The notes below the pieces were generated by a model. The model ran no database searches. It was not told the DNA's origin and saw nothing but the letters and a program-made list of their open reading frames with translations. A program made the position numbers and the translations under genes. DNA of 64,000 nt from positions 18,108-82,107 of the forward strand of contig JASFLY010000008.1 of the NCBI GenBank assembly GCA_050117845.1. The letters are read 5' to 3'. This DNA is from Candidatus Zixiibacteriota bacterium. Its GTDB lineage: Bacteria > RBG-13-66-14 > B26-G2 > WVWN01. Shown one piece after another: positions 3,211 to 61,775 of the stretch (position 1 is the stretch's first letter; each line of letters starts with the position of its first letter).

Positions 3211-3753
3211 ACGACGCGCGCCGTACGTATCGCTACCGGGCGCCGGGGCGCGGCCCGCTTGTGGCCGGCTCTCCTGCCGTTGCTGTTCGCCGCGTGCGGC
3301 GGGGCCCCCGCGCCGGTCGGCGATTTCTCGCTGACGGCCGACAGCCTGGGCGAGATCCCGATGCCGTCGGACGCCCGGCGGCCGGAGAACCTCGCCAAGG
3401 CCCAGGACGGCTCCATGGCGACCCGGTGGACGACCGGCGCGAATATGGAGCCGGGTCATTTCGTGGAACTCGAGTTCCCCGAGCCGCGGCGCGTCGCCGG
3501 ATTGACGTTGGACGCCGGGACCGCGGCCGAGGACTTTCCCGCCCGCTTCGTCGTCGAGGTCTCGGCCGGCGGGACGGACTGGAAAGAGGCGTTCGCCGGG
3601 GGTCCCGACGCGACGAAAGGCGGCCTGACGAGGGTCAAGTTCCGCCGGGCCGAAGAGGTTAAATACATATTGATAACCGTATCCGAGGCCAAAGACCGTT
3701 GGTGGTCGATATACGAGATAGAAGTGGAATATGCGGATGATGAAGAAAAATAA
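3211..3753 (+). CDS. Discoidin (F5/8 type C)-domain lipoprotein; start possibly ACG 3211 (ORF track uses TTG 3259)
   Basis: Lipobox LLFAAC; DGSMATRWTT...FVELEFPEPRRVAGL...WSIYEIEV. Confidence 0.75.
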   Translation, partial: TTRAVRIATGRRGAARLWPALLPLLFAACGGAPAPVGDFSLTADSLGEIPMPSDARRPENLAKAQDGSMATRWTTGANMEPGHFVELEFPEPRRVAGLTLDAGTAAEDFPARFVVEVSAGGTDWKEAFAGGPDATKGGLTRVKFRRAEEVKYILITVSEAKDRWWSIYEIEVEYADDEEK

Positions 3754-4267
3754 TCGGCGTTACGGGGCCGGTTGGTGGAGAACGGCCGGCTACTCGGCTT
3801 TGATATGCGCGGCCGCGGCCCTTCTGGCGTGCGACGGGAACGGCCCCGGCTTCGAATTGGAGGCCGGAAGTACGGGCGAGGACGACATGCCCTTCGAGGT
3901 GCAGCGGCGGGACGAACTCGCCAAGGCGTGCGACGGCGACCCGACGACGCGGTGGACGACCAACGTTCCGATGAGGCCGTGGTTCTATATCGCGATTCAC
4001 CTGAAAGAACCCCGCCGCGTGCGGACCGTCATCCTGAACGCCGAGGGCTCGCCGAAAGACCATCCCCGGCGCTTCCTCGTGGAGGTTTCGCGGGACGGGA
4101 AGGGCATACGCGAAGTCGCCCGCGGCACCAATAAGAATACCAAGAAGGGCATCACGCGCATCGACCTCGACCCGGAGGAAGAAGTCGACCTGATAATGAT
4201 AACGGTACAGGACACGCGGCGTTACTTCTGGTCCATCCACGAGTTGGAAATCGAGTATGCCGATTAG
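3731..4267 (+). CDS. Discoidin (F5/8 type C)-domain lipoprotein, paralog of the upstream gene
   Basis: Lipobox ALLAC; DGDPTTRWTT...WSIHELEIEYAD. Confidence 0.78.
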   Translation: MRMMKKNNRRYGAGWWRTAGYSALICAAAALLACDGNGPGFELEAGSTGEDDMPFEVQRRDELAKACDGDPTTRWTTNVPMRPWFYIAIHLKEPRRVRTVILNAEGSPKDHPRRFLVEVSRDGKGIREVARGTNKNTKKGITRIDLDPEEEVDLIMITVQDTRRYFWSIHELEIEYAD

Positions 4268-6059
4268 GAAGGCCGGCGCGACGCGGGCCGGACGTAATTT
4301 CCTATCGGCGGTCGGGGCGTGGTTCGGCGGCGGCGCCGGTTTCGACGGGGCGCTGGTCGTCCTTTTTGCGGTACTCGCTTATCGGGCGGCGTACGGCCTC
4401 GTCGCCTTCGACTCGATAGCGGTACCCGTTTTCGATTTCTTCGGATTCCGGGACCTGGCGGAGAGCTTCTCGCGGCTCGAGTTGCCCGCCTTTTTCAAGC
4501 GCGGCCCCGGCTATCCGTTCCTGATGGCGCTGTGGCCTTTCAGCTTCGGCGGTGCCGACCGCCTGTTGCAGGGGGGCGAGGTCGTCAGTTATCTGGCCGG
4601 CGTGGGGACGCTGGTTTTCTTATATCGATGGACGAGGCCGCGTTTCGGCCGGGCGGCGGTGCTGGTCGTGGCGACGGCCGCCGGTTTCGCCACCTTCGTC
4701 GAACATACGATCCAACCGCTCTGCGACGTCACGCTCGCCTTCTTCGTGACGGCGGCGGCGGCGGAAGCGGGGAAGGGAAAGGGTTGGGCGTACGTGGCCG
4801 CGGCGTTCGCGGCCGCGACCCGCTACGAGGCGGCGGTGCTCATACCGCTGGTGGCGCTGGCCGATTACAAACACTGGCGGGGCCGCCGGCGTTTGATAGC
4901 GTACGCGGCCCTGGCGGCCGTACCGGTGGGGGCGTGGCTCGCGCTCAGCATAGTCCACTCCGAAGTCGTCAACCCCTACGTCGAGCAGATGCTCGCGCTC
5001 CAGCCGGTGGGGACGGCGTTCCTGGACGTCACGGCCTACGCGGTCTTCACGCCCTGGGTGCCGCACCTCGTGTTCGTGAAATACATTTTCTGCGCGGCGG
5101 CCGTGGCGGGGATAATCGTCGCGGTTATCCGGGGAGGGGCCGGCGCCCGCGTTTACGCCGGCTTCGCGGCCTGCTACGTCGTAATCCACATGCTCTTCCC
5201 CTTCGCCTTCGACCGTTTCGTCGTGCCGTTGATACCGCTTTTGGCCGTGGGCCTGGTGGCCGCGGGGCAGGAAATCGTGCGATGGGCGGGCCGCTGGAAT
5301 CGCGGATGGGTGTGGCTTGCCGCGGGCGTTCCGGCGGTGGCGGTTTGGGCCTCGGGCGTCTTTACGTCCTTTACCGCCCGCCGGGAGGAACCGGCGCTTC
5401 TGGTCTGGGGGGCCGCGCTGCCGCTCCTCATCCTGACGGTCGCGGCGGCGGGCGCGGCGTTCTTCCGGCGGGGCGTGCCCCGGCGGGAGGTGGCCGGCCG
5501 TCTCGGCGCGGCCTTCGTCGCCGTCGCCATACTGTCGTTTTTCGTAAACGGACAGATGAGGTTCTGGGAGTCGCGCTGGTACTCGTACCGCTACGGAGGT
5601 TCGACGATTCGGACGGCGGGCGAGGTCCTGGGGAAGGTGGCCCGGCCCGACGACACCGTCTGTTCGGCGTGGGGAGAGGTGCTTCTGTACTACGCGCGGC
5701 CGACGTCGTTCCATACGATGTTGCCGCGCAATATGAGGCCCGTTAAAACCCGGTTCTTCCCGGGCAAAGCGGCCCGCAGAGGCGTTAATTACATATGTTA
5801 CGATAGCATTTCCGCGGCCGACGCGGACACTTATTTCGGGTCGATAACCGGCGCCGGCCTTCTGGCGCGGTTCGCCGAAGGCCGGAACGTGCCGCCTTAC
5901 GAACATTGGGTGACGCTGCGGCGGGGCTGGGAATACGCTCACCTGTACCGCCGCCGGCCGGGGTGGAAACCGAAATCGGACGGAAACGCGTCCGAGAAAG
6001 GGATAGAAGGAAATGAGTTCAGCGAAGGGACTGAAGGAGAAACTCCCGGACAGGAGTGA
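4257..6059 (+). CDS. GT-C-type (GT39/83-like) polytopic membrane glycosyltransferase
   Basis: Many TM helices; FKRGPGYPFLMAL, QPLCDVT, AAATRYE, HMLFPFAFDRF; C-terminal soluble domain. Confidence 0.65.
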   Translation: MPIRKAGATRAGRNFLSAVGAWFGGGAGFDGALVVLFAVLAYRAAYGLVAFDSIAVPVFDFFGFRDLAESFSRLELPAFFKRGPGYPFLMALWPFSFGGADRLLQGGEVVSYLAGVGTLVFLYRWTRPRFGRAAVLVVATAAGFATFVEHTIQPLCDVTLAFFVTAAAAEAGKGKGWAYVAAAFAAATRYEAAVLIPLVALADYKHWRGRRRLIAYAALAAVPVGAWLALSIVHSEVVNPYVEQMLALQPVGTAFLDVTAYAVFTPWVPHLVFVKYIFCAAAVAGIIVAVIRGGAGARVYAGFAACYVVIHMLFPFAFDRFVVPLIPLLAVGLVAAGQEIVRWAGRWNRGWVWLAAGVPAVAVWASGVFTSFTARREEPALLVWGAALPLLILTVAAAGAAFFRRGVPRREVAGRLGAAFVAVAILSFFVNGQMRFWESRWYSYRYGGSTIRTAGEVLGKVARPDDTVCSAWGEVLLYYARPTSFHTMLPRNMRPVKTRFFPGKAARRGVNYICYDSISAADADTYFGSITGAGLLARFAEGRNVPPYEHWVTLRRGWEYAHLYRRRPGWKPKSDGNASEKGIEGNEFSEGTEGETPGQE

Positions 6060-7392
6060 TTTCCCGGACGTCGATTACTGGGAGGTCCGCCTGGAATCGG
6101 AGGAGCAGACTACCGTAAACGTCAGGGACGGCGACGTCGAAGTCGTCGCCGGTCGGGACGTGGACCGCGGCAACGTTCGGGTACTCGCCCGCGGCGGCTG
6201 GGGTTTCTCGTCGTTCAACCGCCACGCCGACGTGCGGGAACACATCGCCCGGGCGGTCGCCTTCGCCCGCAGCGTGGGCGGCGGCGACGCGTCGGTGCTG
6301 CCGCTCGGGCCCGTGGAAGCCTCGGTTCCGGCGCGCTACGAGCGGCATCCCCGGGACGTTTCGTTCGAGGAAAAACTGGATACCGTCCGGTCTTACGACG
6401 AGATAGTACGGGAACACCCGGCCGTAATTTCGACCACCGTGTCGTACGAGGACACGGTGCGGAACAAGGTCTTCCTGAATTCCGAGGGCCGGCTCGTCGA
6501 GGAGGAGCTGGTATACACCCGGGGCATCGTCCGCGCCACCGGCAAGGCGGACGGCGTCCCGGAAAGCCACTCCGCGAGTTTCCGTTATCACGCCGGCTTC
6601 GAGGCCTTCGTCGAACTACGCGACCGGATCCCGGAGATGCTCGAGGGCCTCGAGGAGCAGCTGGCCGCCGAGGACGCCCGCGGCGGGACGTACGACGTCA
6701 TCGTCAACCCGATGCTGGGGGGCGTGTTCGTGCACGAGGCCTTCGGCCACACCAGCGAGGCCGACCACTTCTACCGCGACGCCGGAATGACCGACGTCAT
6801 GCGGCTGGGGCGGACCATGGGCTCGAAGGCGATAAGCATCGCCGACGACGCGACGCTCTCGCCCAAACACTCCGGCTGCATCGAGTACGACGACGAGGGC
6901 GTGGAGGGGAAGCGGACCGAACTCATGCGCGAGGGCGTTCTGACCGGCCACCTCCACAACCGCACCACCGCCGCCGTACTGGGCGAGGAGTTGACCGGAA
7001 ACGCCCGGGCGCTCCACGCGTCGTTCCCGCCCATCGTCCGCATGACCGCGACGGTGATCGAGCCGGGCGAGGCCACGCTGGACGACTTGTTGCACGAGAT
7101 GGGGGACGGCCTGCTGGTGAAGGACAGCCGCGGCGGCATGGGCGGCGAGAACTTCACGTTCAGCGCCCGCGTCGGCTATCTGGTCGAGGGCGGCAAGTTA
7201 ACGAAACCGGTGAAGAACCTGACGCTCACCGGGAACCTTTTCACCACCCTCAAAAACATCGCCGCGTGTTCGAACGAGCGGGAGTTGTTCAGTTCGGCCG
7301 GAGGCTGCGGCCGCGGCGCCCAATCCCCCCTGCCGGTCAGCTTCGGCAGCCCGCACGTCTTGATTAAAAACGCGCTCATAGGAGGTCGGTAG
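6013..7392 (+). CDS. tldD: TldD family metalloprotease
   Basis: FVHEAFGHTSEAD (HExxxH), YDDEGVEG, LTGHLHNR, GNAR..PPIVRMT, GCGRGAQSPLPVSFGSPHV. Confidence 0.9.
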   Translation: MSSAKGLKEKLPDRSDFPDVDYWEVRLESEEQTTVNVRDGDVEVVAGRDVDRGNVRVLARGGWGFSSFNRHADVREHIARAVAFARSVGGGDASVLPLGPVEASVPARYERHPRDVSFEEKLDTVRSYDEIVREHPAVISTTVSYEDTVRNKVFLNSEGRLVEEELVYTRGIVRATGKADGVPESHSASFRYHAGFEAFVELRDRIPEMLEGLEEQLAAEDARGGTYDVIVNPMLGGVFVHEAFGHTSEADHFYRDAGMTDVMRLGRTMGSKAISIADDATLSPKHSGCIEYDDEGVEGKRTELMREGVLTGHLHNRTTAAVLGEELTGNARALHASFPPIVRMTATVIEPGEATLDDLLHEMGDGLLVKDSRGGMGGENFTFSARVGYLVEGGKLTKPVKNLTLTGNLFTTLKNIAACSNERELFSSAGGCGRGAQSPLPVSFGSPHVLIKNALIGGR

Positions 7393-7393
7393 C

Positions 7394-8677: not shown

Positions 8678-8716
8678 CGCGGCTCCGGCCGGACGCCGAG
8701 GGCGCGCTTGGATTCG

Positions 8717-10234: not shown

Positions 10235-10295
10235 AGGCCGAAAAAAACACTCGCCATCGGGCGAGCGTTTCTTATTCCTCGTAGCGATTCGCGCC

Positions 10296-11972: not shown

Positions 11973-12089
11973 AATCGGGGATTTTAGCAAAGGCGGGCCG
12001 TTTAGTAAAGACCCGATTGCGCCTTCGAGTCCCAATCCTGTTGGCATTTGGGCCGGAATGGGTTAAAATTATAGGGTGATATTAAGGTT

Positions 12090-15329: not shown

Positions 15330-15920
15330 ATAAACGGGATCAAAATATTCTCATTTTTAATTGCGGCGGTTCTGGCCGCGGGAACGGCCGCCGGGGCGTC
15401 GCTTCACGACGCCGCGGCGCAGCTCGATGCCGGCGAGACGAAGGCCGCCGTCAAGGAATTGCTGGCGTACGGCCGCGGCGAACCGACCGCGCCGCTGGCG
15501 AACCAGGCGCTCGACTGCGTCCTCCTACTCAATCAGAAAAAAGTGGTCCCGGCGGTCCTGGCGCCGTACGTCGAGACGCTGGCGCTGTTGGCGGACGGCT
15601 ACGCGACGACGGCGGACGCGGCCTTCCGCGAAATGACCGTAGACGACGGCCTCCCCTGGGCCATACGGGGCCGGGCGGCCCTCCTCGCCGCCGACCTCAA
15701 CACCTACGGCGACCGGGTGGAGATACTCGAGGCGGCGTGGCGCGACTGTGACGACGACACGGCGCGGCTTCTGGGCGTCGCCCTCGCCGAGGCCTATAAC
15801 GACGAAGGCCGGGCCGACGACGCCCGGGCCGTGCGCGACGCGTACGCCCGGCGTTTCCCCGGCGACGCCGGCCTTAAATATTTCGACTACCTGTCGGAAA
15901 CGGAAGACGAGGAGAAATGA
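15330..15920 (+). CDS. Exported all-helical (TPR-like) hypothetical protein; signal peptide only formed if start is ATA 15330 (ORF track starts TTG 15459)
   Basis: Open frame from 15330: INGIKIFSFLIAAVLAAGTAAGA|SLHDAAAQL... Confidence 0.55.
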   Translation: MNGIKIFSFLIAAVLAAGTAAGASLHDAAAQLDAGETKAAVKELLAYGRGEPTAPLANQALDCVLLLNQKKVVPAVLAPYVETLALLADGYATTADAAFREMTVDDGLPWAIRGRAALLAADLNTYGDRVEILEAAWRDCDDDTARLLGVALAEAYNDEGRADDARAVRDAYARRFPGDAGLKYFDYLSETEDEEK

Positions 15921-22967: not shown

Positions 22968-25127
<2,160 letters not shown>

Positions 25128-34421: not shown

Positions 34422-36290
34422 ATGCGGGTAACCGAATTCCGTATTAAGAATTACAAGTCGATAATAGACACCGGGTGGTGCGAATTAGCGAAAGATATCA
34501 CGGTTTTAGCCGGGAAGAACGAAGCCGGAAAGACAGCCGTTTTAGAAGCGTTGAGGGATTTCGACCCGAGGATAGAAGAAATAAGCGCTGAAGCATACCC
34601 TAAGCACAGGCAAGGGGTGCCGGAAATAGGAATTAAACTCGAAACGGGGAGAGAAGAAATCGATAGAATATTAAACGGGGCCGATCTGAACGTCGATTAT
34701 AAAGCAGCGAAAGAAATAGCGGCCAAAGGGATAGTAATCTGCAGAGACCCGGACGGTTATTATTTAACTAACGATACTATTATTGGGGGGCTTTCCTTTA
34801 AGGAAGAGCACGAAAACAGTGCTTATAGAGACAGTATCCTTAGTTTGACTAATCTGATTAATTCTATTTATAGTAAATACGGTAGGCATTTCGAAATAGA
34901 ATTAGGTGAAACGAAAGAAGAAGCCAGGAATGCGGTTACTCAAACAGTATTCCCTTTAAAAAGCCAGTTGACTATCATACCTGATATAGGGGAAAGAAAT
35001 CGCGCGAATATTCTATTCGAAAAACTCGAAGGTTTCCTAGATACCAAAGAAAGCGAAAACGAAGACGCGCACGGAAAATTCGCGACGGCGGTAGCAGAAA
35101 ATATCCCTAAGGTCGTATTCTTTAGTACCTTCGACGATATTTTGCCCGATGAGATAAGCTTGGAAAAAGCCTCTAATACCGAAATTGTATTAGATTTCGC
35201 AAAAATTGCTGGGCTTGATTTCGATTCGGTTAGAAGAACTGACGACGCCCAAGATAAGCGTAATTTATTCAGCAAGGCTTCGGCAAAATTGTCCGGTTAT
35301 TTCGGGGGTTTTTACACGCAAAGCAATGTAGAAATAACGGCAGAGTTAGAAGTCGATACTATAAGGTTTTGGGTAGTGGAAGAGGGTGGCCCTACGCATT
35401 ATAAAACCACGCAACGGAGTAAAGGTTTCCAGTGGTTTTTATCTTTCTTCTTACGTTTGCGCGCGAGAGGAGGCGAAGATAATATGATATTAATCGATGA
35501 GCCGGGTTTATATCTCCACGCGAAAGCTCAACAAGACGTTTTAAAAGTACTAACGAAAACCGCTACTAACGGCCAATTAATATATAGTACGCATTCGCCC
35601 TATCTCATCGACGCAGGCCGCTTAGATAGGGTTAGATTATTGGTTAATAAGAAAGATATTGGTTCTGAAATAATAAACGAAATACATAAAGAAGCGGACC
35701 AAGAAACTCTAACGCCAATTTTGACTGCGATAGGCTTAGATTTAACTTTCGGTTTGAATTTATTCGGGGATTTCAACGTAGTTACTGAAGGCCCGTCTGA
35801 TTATTATTACCTATTGAGTTTCAAGAACATCCTTAAAGAACGGGGGGATTTTAGTATTATACCCTGTATGGGTGGTACTAAGACTCCTCATTTAGTATCG
35901 CTTTTAATAGGATGGGGTTTTAATTATTGTGTTGTATTGGATAACGATCCAACCGGCAAGAGAGTTAGTAACCAGATGCAGAAAAGACTCCCCGTTGAAG
36001 GGGAACGATTCGTATTCGCTGGCCCGATTGTAGGTGATTCGATAGAAGATTTATTCGCTATTGAAGACTTTAAAAAATACGTTCTCGAGGACGATACCGT
36101 TAAAATCGCGAAAGGTAAAATATCTGGATTCCTGAAAGCTAGCAATATAAAAAAAGTCTTAATTGCAAAACGGTTTTTCGAAAAAACATTAAAAAACGGC
36201 CGTAAAATAAAACTTACACAAGAAACGAAAGCGAACTTCGCCGGCCTCCTGGGTCAGGTCCTCGCGGTAAAGAAAAAGTACAAACGTTGA
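34422..36290 (+). CDS. OLD-family ATP-dependent endonuclease (ABC ATPase + TOPRIM), AT-rich, probable anti-phage gene
   Basis: LAGKNEAGKT, SKGFQWF, LIDEPGLYLH, YSTHSP, TOPRIM VTEGPSD and VLDND; strongly A/T-rich codons compared with flanking genes. Confidence 0.85.
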   Translation: MRVTEFRIKNYKSIIDTGWCELAKDITVLAGKNEAGKTAVLEALRDFDPRIEEISAEAYPKHRQGVPEIGIKLETGREEIDRILNGADLNVDYKAAKEIAAKGIVICRDPDGYYLTNDTIIGGLSFKEEHENSAYRDSILSLTNLINSIYSKYGRHFEIELGETKEEARNAVTQTVFPLKSQLTIIPDIGERNRANILFEKLEGFLDTKESENEDAHGKFATAVAENIPKVVFFSTFDDILPDEISLEKASNTEIVLDFAKIAGLDFDSVRRTDDAQDKRNLFSKASAKLSGYFGGFYTQSNVEITAELEVDTIRFWVVEEGGPTHYKTTQRSKGFQWFLSFFLRLRARGGEDNMILIDEPGLYLHAKAQQDVLKVLTKTATNGQLIYSTHSPYLIDAGRLDRVRLLVNKKDIGSEIINEIHKEADQETLTPILTAIGLDLTFGLNLFGDFNVVTEGPSDYYYLLSFKNILKERGDFSIIPCMGGTKTPHLVSLLIGWGFNYCVVLDNDPTGKRVSNQMQKRLPVEGERFVFAGPIVGDSIEDLFAIEDFKKYVLEDDTVKIAKGKISGFLKASNIKKVLIAKRFFEKTLKNGRKIKLTQETKANFAGLLGQVLAVKKKYKR

Positions 36291-36367
36291 GGTTATCGAT
36301 TAATCGGTTTAAATACGGCTCGAAGGGGCCCGCGAGTTAGCCTAACTGCACGATTAGGTAATCCCTC

Positions 36368-36913
36368 GTATTCGACCGCCACAAACACCACCGCCGGTCC
36401 GTCCGCCTCCGCGGTTACGATTATTCGTGGCCGGGGGCGTATTACGTGACCATCTGCACCTACGGCCGGGAATGCGTGTTCGGCGCCGTCCGCGGCCGAG
36501 CGGCCCGGTTGAACGAATACGGCCGCGTCGCCCGCGACGAATGGTTGCGTTCGGCGGCGGTGCGGGATGAAATCGAATTGGACGCGTTCGTGATAATGCC
36601 GAACCACGTCCACGGCATCGTCATCATCACCGGCGACCCGGTGGTAGGGGCGACCGGCCGGTCGCCCCTACATGATACCGCCGGCCGACCGCGGGGGCCG
36701 GCCAAACGTTCGTTATCGTCGTTCATCGGCGGATACAAACCCGCCGTCACCCGCCGCGTCAACGCGCTACGCGATTCGCCGGGGGCGCGGGTGTGGCAAC
36801 GCAATTATTACGAACACATAATCCGGGACGACGACGAATTAGGCCGCATCCGCGGTTACATGATAACGAACCCCGGCCGCTGGGCCGACGACGAATATTA
36901 TATAAATACGTAG
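36368..36913 (+). mobile_element. REP-associated tyrosine transposase (RAYT, IS200/Y1 HUH family); conserved N-terminus lies upstream of the first GTG (36446)
   Basis: FDRHKHHRRSVRLRGYDYSWPGAYYVTICT, IMPNHVHGI (HUH), WQRNYYEHIIRD...YMITNP; GTAG-REP palindromes inside the gene (36644-36671) and at the stop (36910-36937). Confidence 0.88.
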
Positions 36914-40184: not shown

Positions 40185-41123
40185 ATGAGAGCGCTGGTTA
40201 CGGGCGGTGCGGGGTTTATAGGCCGCCACCTGGTCGGCTGGCTGTTGGGCCGAGGGTGCGACGTACTCGCGCTCGACAACCTGTCGAACGGCTCGGCCGG
40301 CAACCTGGAGGAGTTCGGGGGCGAGGCCGGGTTCGCCGGCCTCCTCGAGGGGGACGTGTGCGACGAGGACATCTGGGCCAGCCTGACCGGCCAACGCTTC
40401 GACAGCATCTACCACCTCGCGGCCGCCATCAACGTCCAGGACTCCATCGACGACCCGGCCCGGACGTTCAACTCCGACGTCGTCGGGACCTTCCGGGCCC
40501 TCGAGTTCGCCCGGGCGCAGAACAGCCGCTTTATCTATATCTCGACCTGCCTGGTTTACGCGCCGGCGGTGGACGGCACGCCCATCACCGAGCGTTACCC
40601 CACGCGCCCCGCTTCCCCCTACGCCGCGGCCAAGCTGGCGGGCGAGAACCTGACCCTCTCCTATTACCACGCTTACGGCCTGCACGCCCTCATCCTTCGC
40701 CCTTTCAACACCTACGGCCCCTACCAGCGGACCGACGGCGAGGGCGGCGTCGTCGTAACGTTCCTGAATCAATACTTGAAGGGCGAGCCGCTGGTCGTCT
40801 TCGGCGACGGCCGCCAGACGCGCGACCTCCTTTACGTCGACGATTGCGCCGACCTCATAGGCAGGGCCGGCGAGTCGAACGCCGCCGGGTCCGTCATCAA
40901 CGGCGGCCTGGGTCAGGAAATAGAGATTCGCAACCTGGCCCGCAAGATAGCGGGGAACGAGGACGGCGTAAAATTCGCCGCGCATCCCCACTCCCAGGCC
41001 GAAGTGTGGCGGCTGGTTTGCGACAACGCCAAGGCGGCCCAACTCCTCGACTGGCGGCCCACCACCTCCCTCGACGAGGGCATCGCCAGGACGCGCGCGT
41101 GGATGGAAGAGCGTATAGGCTGA
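40185..41123 (+). CDS. NAD-dependent epimerase/dehydratase (extended SDR)
   Basis: VTGGAGFIG, YAAAK, RPFNTYGP, GDGRQTRDLLYV. ATG 40185 lies inside ORF-track 39660..41123. Confidence 0.92.
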   Translation: MRALVTGGAGFIGRHLVGWLLGRGCDVLALDNLSNGSAGNLEEFGGEAGFAGLLEGDVCDEDIWASLTGQRFDSIYHLAAAINVQDSIDDPARTFNSDVVGTFRALEFARAQNSRFIYISTCLVYAPAVDGTPITERYPTRPASPYAAAKLAGENLTLSYYHAYGLHALILRPFNTYGPYQRTDGEGGVVVTFLNQYLKGEPLVVFGDGRQTRDLLYVDDCADLIGRAGESNAAGSVINGGLGQEIEIRNLARKIAGNEDGVKFAAHPHSQAEVWRLVCDNAKAAQLLDWRPTTSLDEGIARTRAWMEERIG

Positions 41124-41194: not shown

Positions 41195-41328
41195 GTGGGG
41201 GCGACTGGCCAGTCGCCCCTATCCCGATCGGTTAAAAACGGCGGCCTAAAGGCCGCCGCTTCGATTATTATATGAGTACCACCGACATTCCTGTCGGTGA
41301 TTAAGGTTCACCGGCAAGAATGCCGGTG
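41195..41328. repeat. REP-like palindromes between convergent genes; the last copy lies inside the pta 3' end
   Basis: GGGGCGACTGGCCAGTCGCCCC (41198), CACCGACATTCCTGTCGGTG (41280; identical to 1513-1532), CACCGGCAAGAATGCCGGTG (41309). Confidence 0.8.
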
Positions 41329-42323
41329 CCACGTTGCGTCGCCGTTATCGCGACGACGTCGACGATATCGTCGGTCTTGGCGCCGCGGCTGAGGTCGTTC
41401 ATCGGTTTCGCCAGGCCCTGCGTAATGGGCCCCACGGCCCGGGCTCCCGCCAACCGTTCGACCAACTTGTAGCCGATGTTCCCGGCGTTAAGGTCCGGGA
41501 AGATGAGGACGTTGGCCCGGCCGGCCACCGGCGAGGCCGGGGCCTTGCGCTCCGCGACCGACGGGATGACGGCGGCGTCCAGTTGCAGCTCACCGTCGAC
41601 GTCGAGGTCCGGCGCCTTCTGCCGCGCGATTTCGACGGCCCGGCGGACCTTGTCCACGGACTCGTGTTCGCCCGAGCCCTTGGTGCTGAACGACAGCAGG
41701 GCGACGGCCGGGTCGGTGCCCGTCAGTTGCCGGAAGGAGCGGCCTGTGGTCGTCGCGACGTCGGCCAGCTGCTCCGCGTTCGGCTCCACGAGAAGGGCGC
41801 AGTCGGCGAAGAAAATAACGCCCTTCTCGCCGAACTTCGGGTTGCCGGTTATCATCGCGAAGAAGGTGGAGAGGGTATCGACTCCGGGGGCGAGGCCGAC
41901 GAGGTGCAACGCGGCCCGCATAACCGTCGCGGTGGCCGTGGCGGCGCCGCCGACGACGGCGTCCACGTCTCCCCGGCGCAGAAGGTACGCGCCGAAGAAC
42001 ATCGGCTCGAGGACCGTGGCGGACGCCTCTTCCGGCGTCAGGCCCTTGTGTTTACGGAGTTCGAAGTATTCGCCGGCGGCCTCCTCGCGCAGGGGGTCCT
42101 CGGCCGGGATCACCAGCGTGAATCGGCTCAGGTCGGCTTGGCATTTGGCGGCGGCGGCTTCCGCGGACGGGAGGTCGCGCGTAATCAGCGTCACTTCCCG
42201 GGCGAAACCGGCGTCGAGGGCCCGGGCGCCGGTGGCGACGATGCGTTCGTCGTGGCCCTCCGGCAGGCAGAGGCGAATAGGCGCTCGGGCGGCTTTCTCG
42301 CGTATGTGACTTAGAAAAGGCGT
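41301..42323 (-). CDS. pta: Phosphate acetyltransferase; apparent ACG start
   Basis: (M)[27 protein letters not shown]..., [41 protein letters not shown]. Confidence 0.93.
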
Positions 42324-42399
42324 AGTCGACCCTCCTCGGGATTGGAAGGTAAAAAGAGCGGGTTAAGCATTATTCAAAGAACGGACAGGGCGGGGCGGC

Positions 42400-44478
42400 C
42401 TAGAGGACTTCCGCGCCCGCCGGGAGGTCGCCGTCGACGACCAGGATTTTTACCACGTCGTGATGTTGGGCCGCGAGGAGCATACCCCGCGATTCCTCGC
42501 CCCGTATCTTGGCGGGCTGCATGTTCTTCACGATGATTATCTTCCGACCGGCCAACGCTTCGGGTTCGTACCAGGGCGCGATGCCGGCTACGACCGGCCT
42601 TTCTTCGCCGCCGAGGTCCACGGTCATCTTGAGGAGCTTGTCCGCCCCGGCGACTCGTTCACACGTTTTCACTTCGGCTACTACCAACCCCAATTTCTTA
42701 ACGTCGTCTATAGTTACGTACGTTTCGGTCATATCCTCCTCCGGCGGTTTACCCGATTCTTCGGCCGCGGTTTTTTCCTTTGTGTTTTCCTCGGCCGGCG
42801 TCCCGTCGCGTTGCTGTAGCGCGGCCACGTGGGATTCGACGCGGCCTTCGTCTATTTTCTCGATCAGTATTTTAATCTCGCCCAGGGGCGCCCCTTCCGG
42901 GATGGCCGGCGTTTTGGCCTGCTCCCAGGTAAGCGGCGCCGCGAGGGAAAGCATCCTTCTTATCTCTTCGGCGGCGAGGGGCGTGAACGGCTCGAACGCG
43001 GTCGCGAGAGAGGCGGCCAGGCGGCAGGACACGTTCAATATGGCCTCGGCCCGCGGCCTGTCCGTCTTGCGCCGGGCCCAGGGCTCCTCGTCGTTGTAAT
43101 ACTTATTGGCCGCCCGGGCGATTTCGAGCGCGGCGGCGAGAGCGGCCCGCATCTCGTATTTCTCGATGTGCGCGGCCTCAACCTCGAGTTGCCGGCTCGC
43201 CGTCGCGAGAAGGGCCTCGTCGCTTGCGGTTAACGCGCCGGCCCGCGGCACCTCGTTGCCGAGGTAGTTTTTGATAAAGGTGAGCGAGCGGTTGACGAAG
43301 TTCCCGAAGATGTCGGCCAGCTCCGAGTTCACGCGCGTCGCCATATCGGCGAAGGAGAAGTCGGCGTCCTTCGTCTCGGGCGCGTTGGCCGTCAGGTAGT
43401 AGCGCAGCGCGTCCACCTGGAAGTCGGCCACCGCGTCCTCGGCCCAGACGGCCCAGTTGCGGCTGGTCGAGATCTTGCGGCCCTCGAGGTTGAGGAACTC
43501 GTTGGCCGGAATCTGGAAGGGGAGGTTGTAGTTTTCCGGCTGGCCCATGAGCATCGCCGGCCAGACGATGGCGTGGAAGACGATATTGTCCTTGCCGATG
43601 AAGTGGACGACCTTCGAGTCCGGGTCGAGCCAGTAGTCCCGCCACTTCTCCGGTTCGCCGCGTTTCCGGGCCCACTCGATAGTCGAGCTAACGTAGCCGA
43701 TGGGGGCGTCGAACCAGACGTAGAGGACCTTGCCCGCGGCCTCTTCCAGCGGCACCGGGACGCCCCAGTCGATGTCGCGGGTGATGGCCCGGTCGGCGAG
43801 GCCCTCGTCCAGCCAGCTCAGGCAGAACTTGCGGACGTTGTCGCGCCAGTGGGTATTGGCGGCCAGCCACTCCCGCAGGCGGGCGGCGAACTTCGGCAGC
43901 TCGAGGTACCAGTGGGTCGTCTTCCGGGCGACCGGGGGGCCGTCGCAGATTTTGCAGCGGGGGTCTTCGAGTTCGGTCGCGGCCAGCCAGCGGCCGCAGC
44001 TCTCGCACTGGTCGCCGCGGGCGTCGGGACAGCCGCAATGGGGGCAGGTACCCTCGACGTAACGGTCCGGCAGGAAGCGGCCGCAGTTCTCGCAGTACAG
44101 TTGTTCCGTCTCCCGGGCGGTGATGTAGCCGCCGCGGTACAGGTTCGTGAAGAACTCCTGCGCCCGGGGGTAATGTATATCCCGAAGGGTCGTGCGGCTG
44201 TAATTGTCGAAGGTGAAGGCAAAGCCGTCGAAGGCTTTCTGCATCGCCTCGTGGTAGTGGTCGACGAGTCGTTGCGGGGACACGCCCCGGCGTTCCGCGC
44301 TGACGGTTATGGGGACGCCGTGTTCGTCGGACCCGCAGATATAGACGACGTCTTTCCCGGCGAGGCGGAGGTAGCGGACGTACGAGTCGGCCGGCATGTA
44401 CGCCCCGGCGAGTTGGCCCACGTGCAGGGGGCCGTTGGCGTACGGCAGGGCGCTGGTTACCAGATATCTTTCGGCCAT
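42400..44478 (-). CDS. metG: Methionyl-tRNA synthetase with C-terminal tRNA-binding domain
   Basis: LPYANGPLHVGQ, CGSDEHG, Zn knuckle CPHC..CESC, YVWFDAPIGY, KISTS. Confidence 0.96.
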   Translation of the reverse strand: MAERYLVTSALPYANGPLHVGQLAGAYMPADSYVRYLRLAGKDVVYICGSDEHGVPITVSAERRGVSPQRLVDHYHEAMQKAFDGFAFTFDNYSRTTLRDIHYPRAQEFFTNLYRGGYITARETEQLYCENCGRFLPDRYVEGTCPHCGCPDARGDQCESCGRWLAATELEDPRCKICDGPPVARKTTHWYLELPKFAARLREWLAANTHWRDNVRKFCLSWLDEGLADRAITRDIDWGVPVPLEEAAGKVLYVWFDAPIGYVSSTIEWARKRGEPEKWRDYWLDPDSKVVHFIGKDNIVFHAIVWPAMLMGQPENYNLPFQIPANEFLNLEGRKISTSRNWAVWAEDAVADFQVDALRYYLTANAPETKDADFSFADMATRVNSELADIFGNFVNRSLTFIKNYLGNEVPRAGALTASDEALLATASRQLEVEAAHIEKYEMRAALAAALEIARAANKYYNDEEPWARRKTDRPRAEAILNVSCRLAASLATAFEPFTPLAAEEIRRMLSLAAPLTWEQAKTPAIPEGAPLGEIKILIEKIDEGRVESHVAALQQRDGTPAEENTKEKTAAEESGKPPEEDMTETYVTIDDVKKLGLVVAEVKTCERVAGADKLLKMTVDLGGEERPVVAGIAPWYEPEALAGRKIIIVKNMQPAKIRGEESRGMLLAAQHHDVVKILVVDGDLPAGAEVL

Positions 44479-49866: not shown

Positions 49867-49884
49867 CGCCGCACCGGGAACTTA

Positions 49885-52053: not shown

Positions 52054-53370
52054 ATGAAAATACTAACGCTTAACTGCGGCAGTTCGTCGCTCAAGTATTT
52101 GTTCTTCGACGCCGCCGAGGAGCGCGTTATTGCCCGTGGCGCCGTGGAGCGCATCGCGGTCGGGGGCGCATTCATTCTGCACCGCTCCGAGGGAGCGGCC
52201 GGGGAGAAGCCTATTCGCCGGGAGTGCGATTGCCCCTCGCACCGGGAGGCCATCGACCTCGTCCTGGAAACGCTGACGAGCGGCGGGGGCGCCGTCATCG
52301 GCGACCTCGAGGAAATCGCCGCCGTCGCGCATCGCGTCGTCCACGGCGGGGAAGAGCTGAACCGGTCCGTCCTTATCGACGACGGCGTTTTGAAAATCAT
52401 CCGCGACTGCATCGGCCTGGCTCCCCTGCACAATCCGCCGAACATCGCCGGCATCGAGGCCGCCCGGTCGCTGTTGCCGGACGTCCCCCACGTCGCCGTC
52501 TTCGATACCGCCTTCCACCACACGATGCCCGACTACGCGTACATTTACGCCCTGCCGTACGAGTGGTACTGCGACCTGGGCCTGCGGCGCTACGGCTTCC
52601 ACGGCACGTCGCACCTCTACGTCTCCCGGCGGGCCGCGGCGCTTCTGGGAAAGGAACCGGGCGAGGTCAACGTCATCACGCTCCACATCGGCAACGGCGC
52701 CAGCGCCTGCGCGGTGCGGCAGGGCGTCTCCGTCGATACGTCGATGGGCCTGACGCCGCTCGAGGGCCTCGTCATGGGTACGCGTTCGGGCGACGTCGAT
52801 CCGGCGATCCCGTTCCAGGTCACCAAGGACCTCCCCCTCGCCCCGCCGGAGGTATACAGCATCCTCAACCGCCGCAGCGGCATCCTGGGCCTGACGGGGA
52901 TGTACGCCGACCGGCGGGACGTGATGGAACACTACAAAGAGGACGCGGCCTGCACCGACGACGATTCCGAGGAACCCGGCTCGGCCTACCGCTGCAAGCT
53001 GGCTTTCGAGGTGGAGAGTTACCGCCTGAAGAAATACGTGGGGGCGTACGCCGCGGCGCTGGGCCGGGTGGACGCCATCGCCTTCACCGCCGGCGTGGGC
53101 GAGAACTCGCCGGAGGTGCGGGCGCTCGCGCTCGAGGGCCTGACGGCCATGGGCATCGAGGTGGACGCTGACCGGAACGACGAGGCCCCGCGCGGCGCGG
53201 AGGTCGAGATATCGTCCGCGGCCTCGGCCACGAAGGTCTTCGTCATTCCCACCGACGAGGAGCGCGTCTTCATCGAGGACACCGTGGCTCTGTTGAACGG
53301 CACGTACGACCTGCCGGACCGCTTCGTGTACTCCTTCCAGAAGGCGGACTACCGCGTCGGCGCGAAGTAA
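52054..53370 (+). CDS. ackA: Acetate kinase
   Basis: LNCGSSSLK, AHRVVHGG, APLHNPPN, YGFHGTSH, HIGNGAS, MGTRSGD, FTAGVGEN, PTDEE. Confidence 0.97.
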   Translation: MKILTLNCGSSSLKYLFFDAAEERVIARGAVERIAVGGAFILHRSEGAAGEKPIRRECDCPSHREAIDLVLETLTSGGGAVIGDLEEIAAVAHRVVHGGEELNRSVLIDDGVLKIIRDCIGLAPLHNPPNIAGIEAARSLLPDVPHVAVFDTAFHHTMPDYAYIYALPYEWYCDLGLRRYGFHGTSHLYVSRRAAALLGKEPGEVNVITLHIGNGASACAVRQGVSVDTSMGLTPLEGLVMGTRSGDVDPAIPFQVTKDLPLAPPEVYSILNRRSGILGLTGMYADRRDVMEHYKEDAACTDDDSEEPGSAYRCKLAFEVESYRLKKYVGAYAAALGRVDAIAFTAGVGENSPEVRALALEGLTAMGIEVDADRNDEAPRGAEVEISSAASATKVFVIPTDEERVFIEDTVALLNGTYDLPDRFVYSFQKADYRVGAK

Positions 53371-53390
53371 CTGCTATATATCGTAGATTT

Positions 53391-53417
53391 AAAAGCGGCC
53401 CCGCGGGGCCGCTTTTT
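53391..53417 (+). terminator. Intrinsic terminator after ackA
   Basis: AAAAGCGGCCCC-GC-GGGGCCGCTTTT. Confidence 0.7.
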
Positions 53418-53562
53418 ATTTTGGGGAAATCCGCCCGTCCGGCCGCTGCGGCGGGGACACGTTGGGGCTTGATTTTCCGGCGCCGGGAGGGTATTAATAA
53501 AGGGTGAGCGGCCGGCGGGCGCGGGCCGCATCGATAACGCACTCCCGCGAGGAGGATAGGTT

Positions 53563-54213: not shown

Positions 54214-54232
54214 CCCCCCCCAATATGTAATG

Positions 54233-54261
54233 AAGAAGCCGGCCTGCGGGCCGGCTTTTTT
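54233..54261. terminator. Bidirectional terminator between convergent genes
   Basis: AAGAAGCCGGCC-TGC-GGGCCGGCTTTTT. Confidence 0.7.
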
Positions 54262-54286
54262 ACCTTTATTCGTCCTGCGAAGGCGG

Positions 54287-54982: not shown

Positions 54983-55166
54983 TAAAGGGATTTTATTACG
55001 GAAAGGGTAAATTCGCAATAGGCCGACGCTATAAATCACGCGGTACGAGATAACCAGTATTGGTATGTGAATAGTTTCGGTTATAAAACCCGCCCTTTAT
55101 TTTTCGGGCGGCTTTTTTTATAATGGGCGGGATAGAAACCAACCGCTTTTCCGGGAGCCGGTACTT

Positions 55167-57662: not shown

Positions 57663-57698
57663 GGTAGTCCGCCGGATAATCCGAAGGGGGTACGAACG

Positions 57699-58289
57699 AT
57701 GCGTATAGTAATCGCGGTAGCGGCGGCGTGGGCCGTCGCGGTAGGCGTGGGGACGGCCAAGGATTTCGTGAACGAGGATTTCGAAGGGACGTTTCCCCCG
57801 CCGGGGTGGACCACTTTCTACGAGGGCACCGGCGACGCCAGTTGGTCGCTCGCTTACGGCGGGCCGGGGGGCCGGTACGCCCTCGGGGGGACCTCCAGTT
57901 GGGAGCAAGGGTTGGTCCGGGCCACGTTCATGTCTCCCGAATTCGAAGTCAAGGCCAACACGCGCGTCTATTACCGGTTCGATTACGACCACCACGAGAA
58001 CGGCCACAGCGGCGGCGGGGCCGATTTTTATATTACGTACGTCCAACCGTCCCAGGGCAACCTGGTTTACGTGCCGCTGGAGTCGACGTCCGATTGGGAG
58101 GAGCGCAGCGGAGACCTCAAAAACGACCTCAACGCGACCGCGAAGGCCTGCTGGCGGGTATGGACGACCAATTACTGGCGCTACCATTTCTCCTTCCTCA
58201 TGGTCGACGGCGTGATTATCTCGGACGACGCGCGCTACCCGGGCGTGGAGCCGAATTCGCTGGGCCGGGTCAAGGCGCTGTTCCGGTAG
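57699..58289 (+). CDS. Secreted beta-sandwich protein with conserved C-terminal tail motif
   Basis: Signal peptide; FVNEDFEGTFPPPGW; ends GVEPNSLGRVKALFR. Confidence 0.85.
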   Translation: MRIVIAVAAAWAVAVGVGTAKDFVNEDFEGTFPPPGWTTFYEGTGDASWSLAYGGPGGRYALGGTSSWEQGLVRATFMSPEFEVKANTRVYYRFDYDHHENGHSGGGADFYITYVQPSQGNLVYVPLESTSDWEERSGDLKNDLNATAKACWRVWTTNYWRYHFSFLMVDGVIISDDARYPGVEPNSLGRVKALFR

Positions 58290-58373
58290 GGAGAAGTCCG
58301 AAAGAAGAGGAAGCAATCCGCCCGGGGGGCCGCGGCGGGAGGTTAAACGTAACGAAATCGAAGGGGGAACGAG

Positions 58374-58946
58374 ATGAGGCGGGGAAAAGTATTAACGGCG
58401 ATCGTGGCGTCGGCGCTGGCGGCGGGTGCCGCCTCGGCTACGACGTACCTGGACGAGGACTTCCACGCGAACCAGATGCCGACCGGATGGTCGGCCAAGA
58501 CGAGCGGAAGCGGATCCGTCGCTTACGGGTTTATCTACGAGGAATATACGGCGTCAGTTCTGGTAAACGACGGGCAAGCCGGTACGGTGGAGTTAACGTC
58601 GTTCGAGATGACGGTGCCCGCGGGCACTTTGTATTACTCGTTCGAATACTACTCGTACGCCATGGGCTCGGGCACTATCCGGGGGGAGTTCGCCGCGGAA
58701 TACGCGGGGACCTCGACCGAAATCTACCGCGACTCGTTGTCCGGCGGCAGCCGGCACGTCGAGGCCGGGTCGTTTTACGTCGCCGAGCCGGGGACGATAG
58801 TAGTGGTCTGGGTATACCGCGGCGGCGCGGCTCCGGGGCGGTACGCGGAAGGCGAGATGTTCATGGATGACGCCGTCATAACGGACGTGCCGAACGCGGG
58901 CGTGGACCCCAGCTCGCTCGGCCGCGTCCGGGCGCTGTTCCGGTAA
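58374..58946 (+). CDS. Secreted beta-sandwich protein (distant paralog of the upstream gene) with conserved C-terminal tail motif
   Basis: Signal peptide; YLDEDFHANQMPTGW; ends GVDPSSLGRVRALFR. Confidence 0.85.
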   Translation: MRRGKVLTAIVASALAAGAASATTYLDEDFHANQMPTGWSAKTSGSGSVAYGFIYEEYTASVLVNDGQAGTVELTSFEMTVPAGTLYYSFEYYSYAMGSGTIRGEFAAEYAGTSTEIYRDSLSGGSRHVEAGSFYVAEPGTIVVVWVYRGGAAPGRYAEGEMFMDDAVITDVPNAGVDPSSLGRVRALFR

Positions 58947-58995
58947 GCGGTGGCCGAAAGCACTTTCATTAATCCCGGGTTCCAAGGAGGAATCA

Positions 58996-59649
58996 ATGGC
59001 CGACTACGACACGGAGCAGGTGCATAAGGACACCATCGAGTATTATCGGCTGACGCTGGCCCAGCACGAGAAGGACCCCCACGCCGTCGAGACGGCGAAG
59101 GCCGACCGGGCCGTCCTCGAGATGGTCCGCGAGACCCCCGGCGTCGTCGAGATGAACAGCAAGATGATGGAAGGGGGCCTCGCGTTCGCCGTCGCTCGGG
59201 CGATGTCGGTGGACGGCGCCAACTTCCAGGCCGACGTATACGAGGAACTCGAGGAGGGGCCGTTGGCCGAACGCTGGCGCGCTCGCGCCGGGGCCCTGGC
59301 GGCCTCCGGCGACATGAACGAGCTCTACGCTATCTCCGAGAAGATGGACGCGGAGGAAGCCCCGACCAAGGAGAACGAGAGCCGGGCCAAATCGCTCATC
59401 CCGACGATTATCGAGAAGCTGCTTTTGGTGGAGGCGAGCCCGCCCGGCACCGGCCTCGACGAGCAGCCGATGACGACGCTCACGGCCTCGCTCGACGAAC
59501 TGGCCCAGCGGTTCCCCGGCGTTCGCTTCCCGGACGCGCTCGACCTGCCGCGCTTCCGTACCCGGCTGGTCTATTCCGATGGGCAGATTAAAAGGCTGGT
59601 CGAGCTGTTCGAGAAAGTCAATGCCGAACGGCTGGGGGGGCGGTACTAA
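58996..59649 (+). CDS. Helical hypothetical protein
   Basis: AAGGAGG SD; GC3-biased codons; TAATG overlap with the next gene. Confidence 0.75.
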   Translation: MADYDTEQVHKDTIEYYRLTLAQHEKDPHAVETAKADRAVLEMVRETPGVVEMNSKMMEGGLAFAVARAMSVDGANFQADVYEELEEGPLAERWRARAGALAASGDMNELYAISEKMDAEEAPTKENESRAKSLIPTIIEKLLLVEASPPGTGLDEQPMTTLTASLDELAQRFPGVRFPDALDLPRFRTRLVYSDGQIKRLVELFEKVNAERLGGRY

Positions 59650-61154
59650 TGGATCCGGGCGTGAAGCAGATGATCGACGGCCTCAAGATGGGAGTGGACG
59701 CCCAGTCCTCGATGGTCAGCGACAAAAGTAGGTTGGACGACGTTCGGGCCGTAATAGGCCGGATGGAAGAGGTCGCCGCCGAGCCGGGCATGGATATGAT
59801 GAAGTTCCAGGAGCGCATAAACGCCGAGGGCCTGATGGATAAATACGGCCAGGCCATGGCCGCCCTCAGCGAGGTACAGGTCGCGGCGATGGACCAGAAG
59901 ATAGAGGAGATGGAGGATTACGCCGCGGAAGCGAAGCCGATCGACCTCGAGACGCTGGACATCACCGATATCGAAATCGTCCTCGGCCCCCACCGCCAGG
60001 TATACAACACGACCGTGAAGGACAACGATACGCTGCCGCACCAGAAGGCCGCGTACGAGGCGTTCTTCGCGCTGGGGAAAGAGTGCGCGACCATTCCCGA
60101 GTTCAACCGCCGGTCCAAGGCCGAGGGCTACCAGGACCAGCTGGGCCTCGCCGGCGTCTGGGACGGCAATTACAACACCTTCCGGCTGGAGGTGACGCAC
60201 AAACAGCCGGACATGATAACGTACGGCCTGGACGCGCTCACCGCCGTCGGCGATTACCCTTCCCCGGAAATGCTGGCCTACGCGCTCAACCGCCTCGCTC
60301 TTCTCAACGAGCGGACCCTCGCGCGGCGGGCCAGTCTCTTCGAACCGTTCAACGGCTTCGGCGGCGAATTGTCGTCGTACCTCATCCTCGTACATACGGA
60401 GGAGCAGCGGCAGAAGGTCGTCAACATGTACGGCCTGCAGGAGGAGTTCACCGGCCTCGATTTCGACGCGGCGACGTACCATCCCTACTTCCGCCAACTC
60501 CTGGTGCTGGACGACGCCCGCCAGCGCGGCGAGCTGGGCCCCGACTACCTGGGCGTCATCCCCTTCCTCCGGGCCGGCTGGTTCACCGACGCCTGCCTCT
60601 CGCCCGAGGAGAAGAAGGCCTTCGCGGATAAGAAAGAGATCCCTCGGCCTCCCGCCCTCCGCTACCCGTATCGCACCGGGCCGGTGGGCGGCGTCAACGT
60701 GACGCTGGCGGAACCGCCGTTCGCGAACCCCTTCGACTCGCCCTTCCCGGCCCGCGTGACCATAACGAACAAGGCCGCCGAGGGCCGGCCCCTGGATACG
60801 ACCAAGGGCCTGCGCATGTGGGTCTTCACCGAGGACGGCGCCGAGGCAAAGAAGGTGCCGGTGGAGCTGCCGGCCGAACTCGCGCCGGGGGCCTCGGAGA
60901 CGGTCGAGGGCGACCTCTTCGCGTGGGGCCTGCCGCAGGAGGAGAAGCTGTTCATGGTGGCCTTCGACGTCGGCGTAGAGGGCAACCACAAGTGCGACCT
61001 GGCCGAGAAGTACGGCAATCCGGAGGGCCTTACGCCGCCGATGATTCCGGACTTCTTTTTGGAGCCTTTCGAAGGCGGCGCCGCGACCGAACCGGCCTTC
61101 GTAATGCCGCACCGGCCCGTCCCGGCGTACCCGTTCCCGATGCCGATAGAGTAG
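59649..61154 (+). CDS. Hypothetical protein (helical repeats plus C-terminal Ig-like region)
   Basis: 501-aa ORF with GC3 bias, translationally coupled to the upstream gene. Confidence 0.8.
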   Translation: MDPGVKQMIDGLKMGVDAQSSMVSDKSRLDDVRAVIGRMEEVAAEPGMDMMKFQERINAEGLMDKYGQAMAALSEVQVAAMDQKIEEMEDYAAEAKPIDLETLDITDIEIVLGPHRQVYNTTVKDNDTLPHQKAAYEAFFALGKECATIPEFNRRSKAEGYQDQLGLAGVWDGNYNTFRLEVTHKQPDMITYGLDALTAVGDYPSPEMLAYALNRLALLNERTLARRASLFEPFNGFGGELSSYLILVHTEEQRQKVVNMYGLQEEFTGLDFDAATYHPYFRQLLVLDDARQRGELGPDYLGVIPFLRAGWFTDACLSPEEKKAFADKKEIPRPPALRYPYRTGPVGGVNVTLAEPPFANPFDSPFPARVTITNKAAEGRPLDTTKGLRMWVFTEDGAEAKKVPVELPAELAPGASETVEGDLFAWGLPQEEKLFMVAFDVGVEGNHKCDLAEKYGNPEGLTPPMIPDFFLEPFEGGAATEPAFVMPHRPVPAYPFPMPIE

Positions 61155-61219
61155 GGAAAAACCGCCTAAAAAGCGTAACGGCCATCCCCGGCCGGCAACT
61201 AATAAGGCACCGGTCAAGG

Positions 61220-61775
61220 GGGAAATAGAATCGTCCGCTTCCGGTAAAAAAGCCGCCCCGACGGGGGCGGCTTTAATAAAACCGAGTTAATCCACGTTAA
61301 TTTAACGAGGCCGACGTTAGTAGCGGTGAATAAGGGAGGTTCGCGTTACGAAGTATCTATTAATGGGATTACCTATCGCACTTATCGCTGTACTGATATC
61401 CTCTTGTGATGGGCCCACTTACGTTTACGCACGGCCCAGTATCCAAAGCGTTAGCGAAAACGGAGGAACCATCGAGGTCAGTTGGGAAGCGTTTAACACG
61501 GTACAATCTATTAAACGATATAGTTGGTGCGAACTTAAAGGAGGATGGGATTTCGATTTCGAAGACGCCGTTAAAAGCAGCATGTACTACGTAGACGATT
61601 CTAATTTAGTGCCCGGTACGACGTACGGGTATACCGTCTACGACGGGATTGAAGAATCGGGATTGAGGAGTATTAATTACAGAGGACCGAGGGCCGTTAA
61701 GGATGACACCAACCAAGGGAAATAGAATCGTCCGCTTCCGGTAAAAAAGCCGCCCCGACGGGGGCGGCTTTAATA
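61220..61775 (+). repeat. 59-bp perfect direct repeat (61220-61278 and 61717-61775) containing a stop codon and terminator hairpin
   Basis: GGGAAATAGAATCGTCCGCTTCCGGTAAAAAAGCCGCCCCGACGGGGGCGGCTTTAATA occurs twice. Confidence 0.9.
61348..61725 (+). CDS. Small AT-rich lipoprotein (Fn3-like beta-rich); start probably ACG 61348 (ORF track ATG 61363)
   Basis: (M)KYLLMGLPIALIAVLISSC lipobox; GGGAGG SD 8 nt before ACG. Confidence 0.7.
   Translation, partial: TKYLLMGLPIALIAVLISSCDGPTYVYARPSIQSVSENGGTIEVSWEAFNTVQSIKRYSWCELKGGWDFDFEDAVKSSMYYVDDSNLVPGTTYGYTVYDGIEESGLRSINYRGPRAVKDDTNQGK

Follow-up and report, generated by a model that had tools for sequence, protein, structure and literature searches.

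In Escherichia coli and its relatives, infC, the gene for initiation factor IF3, and pcnB begin with AUU, a conserved start codon used for translational (auto)regulation. ACG, to our knowledge, does not appear in the list of bacterial start codons in NCBI translation table 11. In an E. coli reporter it initiates, mostly with Met, at roughly 0.01–1% of the AUG level, and it does not occur among the annotated starts of 34 well-annotated genomes (10.1101/063800); noncanonical starts are subject to proofreading by IF3 (PMC9723500, PMC5499595). Our literature searches did not turn up any bacterium with a natural ACG start; such starts were described only from eukaryotes, viruses, and organelles, and nothing was returned on the start codons of Coatesbacteria. 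The present study concerns a 64-kb stretch of contig JASFLY010000008.1 (the window; about 65% G+C, from a wetland metagenome, 54 genes mapped) and in particular its gene for phosphate acetyltransferase, pta, for which ACG is the probable initiation codon. An earlier note on this DNA had proposed unusual starts at five sites: ACG at pta and at the genes beginning at 3211 and 61348, ATA at 15330, and GTA at 36368. All five codons are present at these positions with the Shine–Dalgarno (SD) spacings described, and the unusual start holds at pta, 3211, 15330, and 61348 and falls at 36368.

The start of pta in the window

The pta gene lies on the minus strand (41301–42323, 340 codons from ACG, with its stop codon at 41301–41303), and metG (42400–44478, minus strand) is its upstream neighbor. 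The putative initiation codon ACG (42321–42323) follows the SD sequence GAGGAGG (42331–42337) after 7 nt, just as had been claimed. Counted from the in-frame stop upstream, the open reading frame (ORF) has 56 codons without ATG, GTG, or TTG, and a canonical codon first appears in frame with GTG 42194, 43 codons downstream of ACG. Full-length Pta homologues open with M-D/E-x-L-x-x-I-R...LCLPEG, and their Met aligns with ACG 42323–42321. The ORF is uninterrupted and encodes a full-length domain whose catalytic regions are conserved: positions 2–319 of the PF01515 (PTA_PTB) profile correspond to Pta residues 3–328, and positions 2–318 of NF007233 to residues 4–330, both numbered from ACG. A noncanonical codon thus occupies the SD-defined start, and no canonical codon can yield the full-length protein; judged from sequence, coding extends upstream of any canonical codon. 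Codons 2–4 (GAT TTT TTT) are A/T-rich in a genome of 65% G+C, and together with the strong SD they may offset the poor ACG.

A programmed −1 frameshift on the T-rich run after ACG (T TTT TTA in lineage L001) was considered and rejected: there is no conserved upstream start in another frame, and the window does not have the slippery heptamer. A conserved RNA structure at the pta start was likewise discarded, the RNAalifold covariation term being −0.05 and the single-sequence folds differing between lineages. The ackA gene (52054–53370), which has a normal ATG and no SD, lies 10 kb from pta and does not share an operon with it; pta itself is linked to metG clade-wide, the metG–pta synteny holding across the clade loci.

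Conservation of the ACG among relatives

ACG stands at the pta Met1 position in 11 of 12 related lineages (64–78% amino acid identity), namely the window, L001/L098, L003–5, L006–8, L093, L094, L095, L096, L097/L099, L103, and L108, which share one layout: GGAGG (AGAGG in L108), 7 nt, ACG. The metagenome pattern search that gave L093–L099 was aimed at coding sequence 17 codons downstream, and the start codon played no part in it. In L095, the reading frame is interrupted by TGA one codon ahead of ACG. ATG occupies the start position in none of the 12 lineages, and the outgroup L104 (66% identity) has a GTG start for pta, separated from the metG stop by 7 nt. A profile search of genome contigs with pta gave, among the matches listed, relatives of at most 54% identity and none from the clade.

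When nine of the lineages were aligned, the 40 nt upstream of ACG had no invariant bases other than those of GGAGG, which was always 7 nt away. Downstream, 16% of the third positions of codons 2–50 are invariant, whereas the start ACG is fixed; at codon 5 (Thr), ACG, ACT, ACC, and ACA are all used across lineages and the start ACG remains unchanged. With the 16% as a yardstick, the pta ACG is conserved among orthologs beyond neutral expectation. Since no lineage has ATG, 11 of the 12 have ACG, and ACG is one transition from ATG, the poor codon itself appears to be under selection. Of the explanations offered in the earlier note, deliberate down-tuning is the best fit for pta, where ACG is fixed, one transition from ATG, while most nearby third positions have changed. 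Collectively, these comparisons make a very strong case that the pta ACG is a real, selected start.

Standard gene finders miss this start. More than 20 close Pta relatives (65–79% identity) are annotated in the protein database at 248–313 aa, starting at an internal V or M, such that Pta is shortened by 27–97 residues in more than 20 database clusters of the clade.

DNA reads, a sister strain, and RNA at pta

The source run, X1, contains the whole window at a contig depth of ∼12, and a second run, X2, contains a strain that is ∼95% identical; both have ACG at the pta start. After the ACG, the X2 strain differs from the window at 42318, 42309, and 42306, all synonymous third positions. Upstream of it, changes at 42327, 42337, 42365, 42367, 42370, and 42387 and a 1-nt insertion at 42388 show no reading-frame pattern, and the change at 42337 converts the SD from GAGGAGG to AAGGAGG. 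Because the same codon is found in X1, in X2, and in 11 other lineages from unrelated samples, assembly error, which had been kept as the alternative explanation, is ruled out at pta. At the RNA level, a contig from X3 covers 42250–42400 and has ACG at the pta start, and in the L097 lineage two soil metatranscriptomes (X10 and X11) also show ACG there, with no difference. The metG–pta spacer is spanned by RNA contigs.

Secreted proteins at 3211 and 15330

A discoidin (F5/8 type C, PF00754) lipoprotein gene at 3211–3753 (plus strand) has a probable ACG start at 3211–3213. The SD-like GAGGGGGG (3197–3204), 6 nt before this ACG, is contained in the 3′ end of the upstream histidine kinase gene, and ACG comes directly after the TAA of that gene (3208–3210). 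In an ortholog on a syntenic contig (L009, 77% identical), GAGGAGGA-TAACGG-GTG matches the GAGGGGGG-AAGTAA-ACG of the window position for position. Homologues of the protein carry 16–19 residues with an RRR motif ahead of the hydrophobic core, and the ACG-started form is alike. Moreover, the X2 strain keeps the ORF and the ACG ACG, and the sole plausible canonical start, TTG 3259, has become TTC in it. These comparisons give good support to ACG as the probable start of the gene; RNA contigs over 3211 were not found. An in-frame ATC at 3229–3231 near the 5′ end of the ORF (ATT in X2, a synonymous change) could be an alternative start, with no SD there.

The gene at 15330–15920 (plus strand) encodes a secreted 196-aa protein and has ATA 15330, or possibly ATC 15339, as its candidate start. 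ATG, GTG, and TTG are absent before 15459, although the region encodes a typical signal peptide. In this region the strains in X2 and X4 differ from the window at 15341, 15344, 15350, and 15353, all synonymous third positions; they also show conservative I-to-V and A-to-V changes. Almost all orthologs are 191–196 aa long and have an ATG start and an "MRR..." signal peptide. The upstream stop is followed after 4 nt by ATG in the Coatesbacteria ortholog (L107) and after 3 nt by ATA in the window, where the stop is TAA; this placement makes ATA 15330 the positional homologue of the start. On these sequence patterns a noncanonical start is required for the gene, which has no good SD and is thus likely to depend on coupling to translation of the gene upstream. 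The in-frame ATC at 15339–15341, near the 5′ end of the ORF, is ATT in the sister strains, a synonymous change, and is a possible alternative start. ATT is a better near-cognate start than ATC, and it is the form found in the sister strains at both 3229–3231 and 15339–15341.

A comparison of starts in sister genomes therefore gives a divided result: pta keeps ACG, and at 3211 and 15330 the odd codon is not conserved, the orthologs having GTG and ATG, respectively.

Sites 61348 and 36368

The gene for a small lipoprotein at 61348–61725 (plus strand) has a possible ACG start, with GGGAGG (61334–61339) 8 nt before it and no canonical codon in any frame 5–10 nt after this SD. An alternative, ATG 61363, lies five codons downstream of ACG and 23 nt from the SD. 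Three homologues have lipoprotein signal peptides of 16–20 residues with K/R near the N terminus; the ACG form of the window protein would have a 20-aa signal peptide with K and the ATG form one of 15 aa, uncharged. Support for ACG at this site is moderate and comes from signal-peptide length and charge only. The region is present in X1 only, with no sister-strain match.

We found no support for GTA 36368 as a start. This codon belongs to an ORF at 36362–36913 (plus strand) that resembles a repetitive extragenic palindromic (REP)-associated tyrosine transposase (RAYT; NF047646, 57 bits, below cutoff). No AUG near-cognate lies within 10 codons ahead of the conserved HRRS motif, and alignment of a paralogue fragment (ATG-AGC-CTT-GAC) with the window (TAA-TCC-CTC-GTA-TTC-GAC) places the paralogue ATG at TAA; no sister-strain match was found. 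The ORF is probably a start-less transposase relic. A sixth case, an epimerase at 40185, was dismissed when a normal ATG was found in another frame. The equivalence of the five sites that the earlier note implied is therefore too strong: 36368 lacks support, an ATG offers an alternative at 61348, and the start at 15330 may be ATC.

Start usage in the window

Start usage was examined in the 64 kb of the window and about 80 kb of relatives. Canonical codons start 49 of the 54 window genes (ATG 36, GTG 9, TTG 4), with ACG at 3, AUA/AUC at 1, and 1 unresolved. A count of SD + ACG before ORFs in the window, one of the checks proposed for the pattern, gave no enrichment over SD combined with other GC-rich codons (CGG, CGC, and GCC). 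The SD + ACG pattern by itself is not above chance, and the case thus rests on orthology, substitution patterns, and conservation.

Genomic context

The window shares the gene order discoidin proteins, TldD/PmbA, PMT_2, 1070-aa protein, 193-aa protein, DUF2007, NeuB, PHO4, PhoU, def, RNase T/WYL, gyrB with CP070633.1 (L107), a 2.35-Mb "Candidatus Coatesbacteria bacterium" genome, which indicates that the organism is a relative of Candidatus Coatesbacteria. In CP070633.1 (L107:17662–18460), the annotated gyrB is a fragment of only 98 aa and the annotated AdoHcyase has 133 aa. Such lengths point to indel errors or to pseudogenes, and this assembly should be used with caution as a reference for start codons. 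In the product of the window gyrB (22968–25103, minus strand), the conserved ATPase start is preceded by an N-terminal extension of ∼90 residues that is rich in Lys and Ala and resembles histone H1. The gene is part of a dnaN–recF–gyrB cluster in which dnaN adjoins a HEAT-repeat gene and not dnaA.

Two 196-nt direct repeats, 93% identical and 262 nt apart, occupy 1310–1767, between a tRNA-Ala gene and the histidine kinase gene. They are dense in CGGCATTCCTGCCG hairpins, which also occur at 41283–41296 and 41312–41325 (10 matches in the window versus 1.1 expected). The CGGCATTCCTGCCG repeats look like REP-like elements, with the RAYT-like gene at 36362–36913 in the same window. The probable transposase relic is adjoined by an island of 44% G+C (34422–36290) in the 65% G+C genome. 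The island codes for a nuclease of the OLD type (AAA_15 + TOPRIM) that weakly resembles PtuA/retron effectors, and its gene was probably acquired and serves against phage.

Discussion

We think it reasonably probable that in this Coatesbacteria-related lineage SD-driven initiation takes place directly at ACG (at ATA or ATC in one gene) on unedited mRNA, and that the pta start is under selection. In such a model, a strong SD at 6–8 nt would position the 30S subunit at pta, 3211, and 61348, and the initiator tRNA would pair with the near-cognate codon; at 3211 and 15330, initiation would perhaps also be coupled to termination upstream, with the stop codon 0–3 nt away. The pta ACG would be old, having taken over from GTG or ATG after the clade separated from the outgroup and having been retained since, and would act as a start of low efficiency, or one sensitive to initiation fidelity, by which the Pta level is set or regulated, as AUU does in infC. 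The other sites would be younger replacements of canonical starts, given orthologs with GTG or ATG, that the lineage tolerates. Decoding by the N-formylmethionine tRNA (tRNA-fMet), low efficiency, and a regulatory purpose of the pta ACG are what we infer.

Several observations weigh against this model. The three RNA contigs at the pta start have a depth of only 2–5, at which minority variants would be concealed, and they may include contaminating DNA. About half of the intergenic GGAGG motifs in the window have no gene. ACG outnumbers the other near-cognate starts (AUH, CUG) in the window by 3:1; that the weakest near-cognate class in E. coli is yet the most used here hints at something ACG-specific. 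The twelfth lineage, L102/L106 (GCA_036448695.1/GCA_044240365.1), has GCG at the pta start (L102:1483–1485) with SD and spacing intact, and the NCBI start call there is ATA at codon 7 (MEE8639928.1); L102 and L106 are possibly one sample, and the GCG variant is thus a candidate only. With a normal initiator tRNA, GCG would be expected to work even less well than ACG; it would suit editing or a CGU-anticodon initiator better, or else be a deleterious variant or reflect a shifted start. Finally, an in-frame TTG soon follows the pta ACG in L094 (codon 3, 13 nt from the SD) and L103 (codon 7, 25 nt); gene callers start pta at these TTGs (P0143 and P0006), which could be its starts in those lineages.

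An altered initiation machinery would make ACG, and GCG, an efficient and regular start, in which case the pta ACG would not be weak. Candidates would be a second initiator-type tRNA with a CGU anticodon, an initiator tRNA without the three G–C pairs, or an IF3 variant whose proofreading is relaxed. Three ACG starts among 54 genes of one window, versus none among the annotated starts of 34 well-annotated genomes, speak for such a change, as do the prevalence of ACG over near-cognates that are stronger in E. coli, the ACG/GCG swap at pta, which mirrors the first-position wobble of AUG/GUG, and the failure of ATG to replace ACG in any of 12 lineages, without visible pressure to "repair" it. However, 49 of the 54 genes keep ATG, GTG, or TTG, the 3211 and 15330 orthologs use GTG or ATG, so that usage is sporadic, and SD + ACG, by raw count, shows no enrichment; on balance we regard an altered machinery as possible but doubtful. 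Scans of the window and the clade loci found no initiator tRNA, the only real tRNA being tRNA-Ala, which is also the only Rfam match in the window; the tRNA-fMet and infC genes lie outside the window and the related loci. A 90-nt tRNA-Ile(TAT) call in L006 was set aside as probably spurious, lying inside a coding gene. Equally tentative is the broader proposal that Coatesbacteria-related bacteria have an expanded start set in which NCG codons (ACG and GCG) are decoded efficiently because the initiation apparatus has changed, for instance by way of an initiator-type tRNA that reads ACG or through a permissive IF3 or 16S P-site. If this is true, then a few per cent of genes start at codons that are barred by gene finders and NCBI table 11.

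It is also conceivable, if rather unlikely, that only pta has a real regulatory ACG, the other sites being decaying or mis-delimited genes, with no genome-wide property involved. The ATG five codons downstream at 61348, the TTG 3259 of the window strain, the start-less look of the RAYT-like ORF, the chance-level frequency of SD + ACG, and the restriction of deep conservation of an odd codon to pta all fit such a picture. Yet the sister strain that has no TTG 3259 keeps the ORF and ACG ACG, the signal-peptide region at 15330 shows synonymous-only change and no canonical start, and ortholog starts fall exactly on ACG 3211 and ATA 15330. C-to-U mRNA editing, which the earlier note had raised by analogy with plant organelles, would turn ACG into AUG (and GCG into GUG) before translation; every C-containing proposed start is indeed one C-to-U change from a canonical codon, and the C is invariant in 12 lineages. 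We consider editing very unlikely, since the RNA contigs (three contigs, three metatranscriptomes, two lineages) show C at the site, which argues against efficient conversion, and ATA 15330 is beyond repair by C-to-U. Our literature searches gave no bacterial C-to-U mRNA editing system, nor do we know of one, and no site-specific cytidine deaminase or editing factor is among the Pfam hits of the window, although no search was aimed at one. As for sequencing or assembly error, or a pta pseudogene, nothing beyond the oddity of the codon speaks for it; the codon recurs in independent runs, samples, and assemblies, the full-length ORF retains its catalytic regions, and RNA contigs cover the start region, making this explanation exceedingly improbable.

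Direct SD-driven initiation at ACG, if correct, has practical as well as mechanistic consequences. In addition to shortening Pta, gene callers deprive at least two secreted proteins in the window of their signal peptides, and such miscalls distort metabolic and localization predictions for candidate phyla. For the study of start-codon fidelity, an ACG start that occurs naturally in bacteria and is retained by 11 of 12 sampled lineages would offer a clean system, bearing on how IF3 and the initiator tRNA handle a second-position mismatch and on why selection preserves a codon of this kind in the gene for a central enzyme of the acetate pathway.

The pta start shares single features with several known systems. 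As in the plant-organelle transcripts in which ACG is edited to AUG (PMC12548569), a genomic ACG stands at a conserved Met position; here, however, the RNA reads ACG, and the setting is a bacterium with SD-led mRNA. The ACG starts of eukaryotes and their viruses (adeno-associated virus VP2 and others) are alike in that ACG sets a low product stoichiometry, but they depend on scanning under eIF1/eIF5 control, in contrast to SD-directed bacterial initiation. The E. coli near-cognate work (10.1101/063800) established that ACG can initiate with an N-terminal Met on an artificial reporter, whereas the pta ACG is natural and evolutionarily retained. The closest likeness is to the AUU of infC: pta also has a codon other than AUG, GUG, or UUG at an SD-defined start, conserved and one mutation from a canonical codon. 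The two differ in that AUU departs from AUG at the third position and ACG at the second, and in that infC encodes a translation factor and pta a metabolic enzyme at which no feedback loop is evident. In both genes, nonetheless, the odd codon has been kept though one mutation would make it canonical, which points to selection for an inefficient, fidelity-sensitive start.

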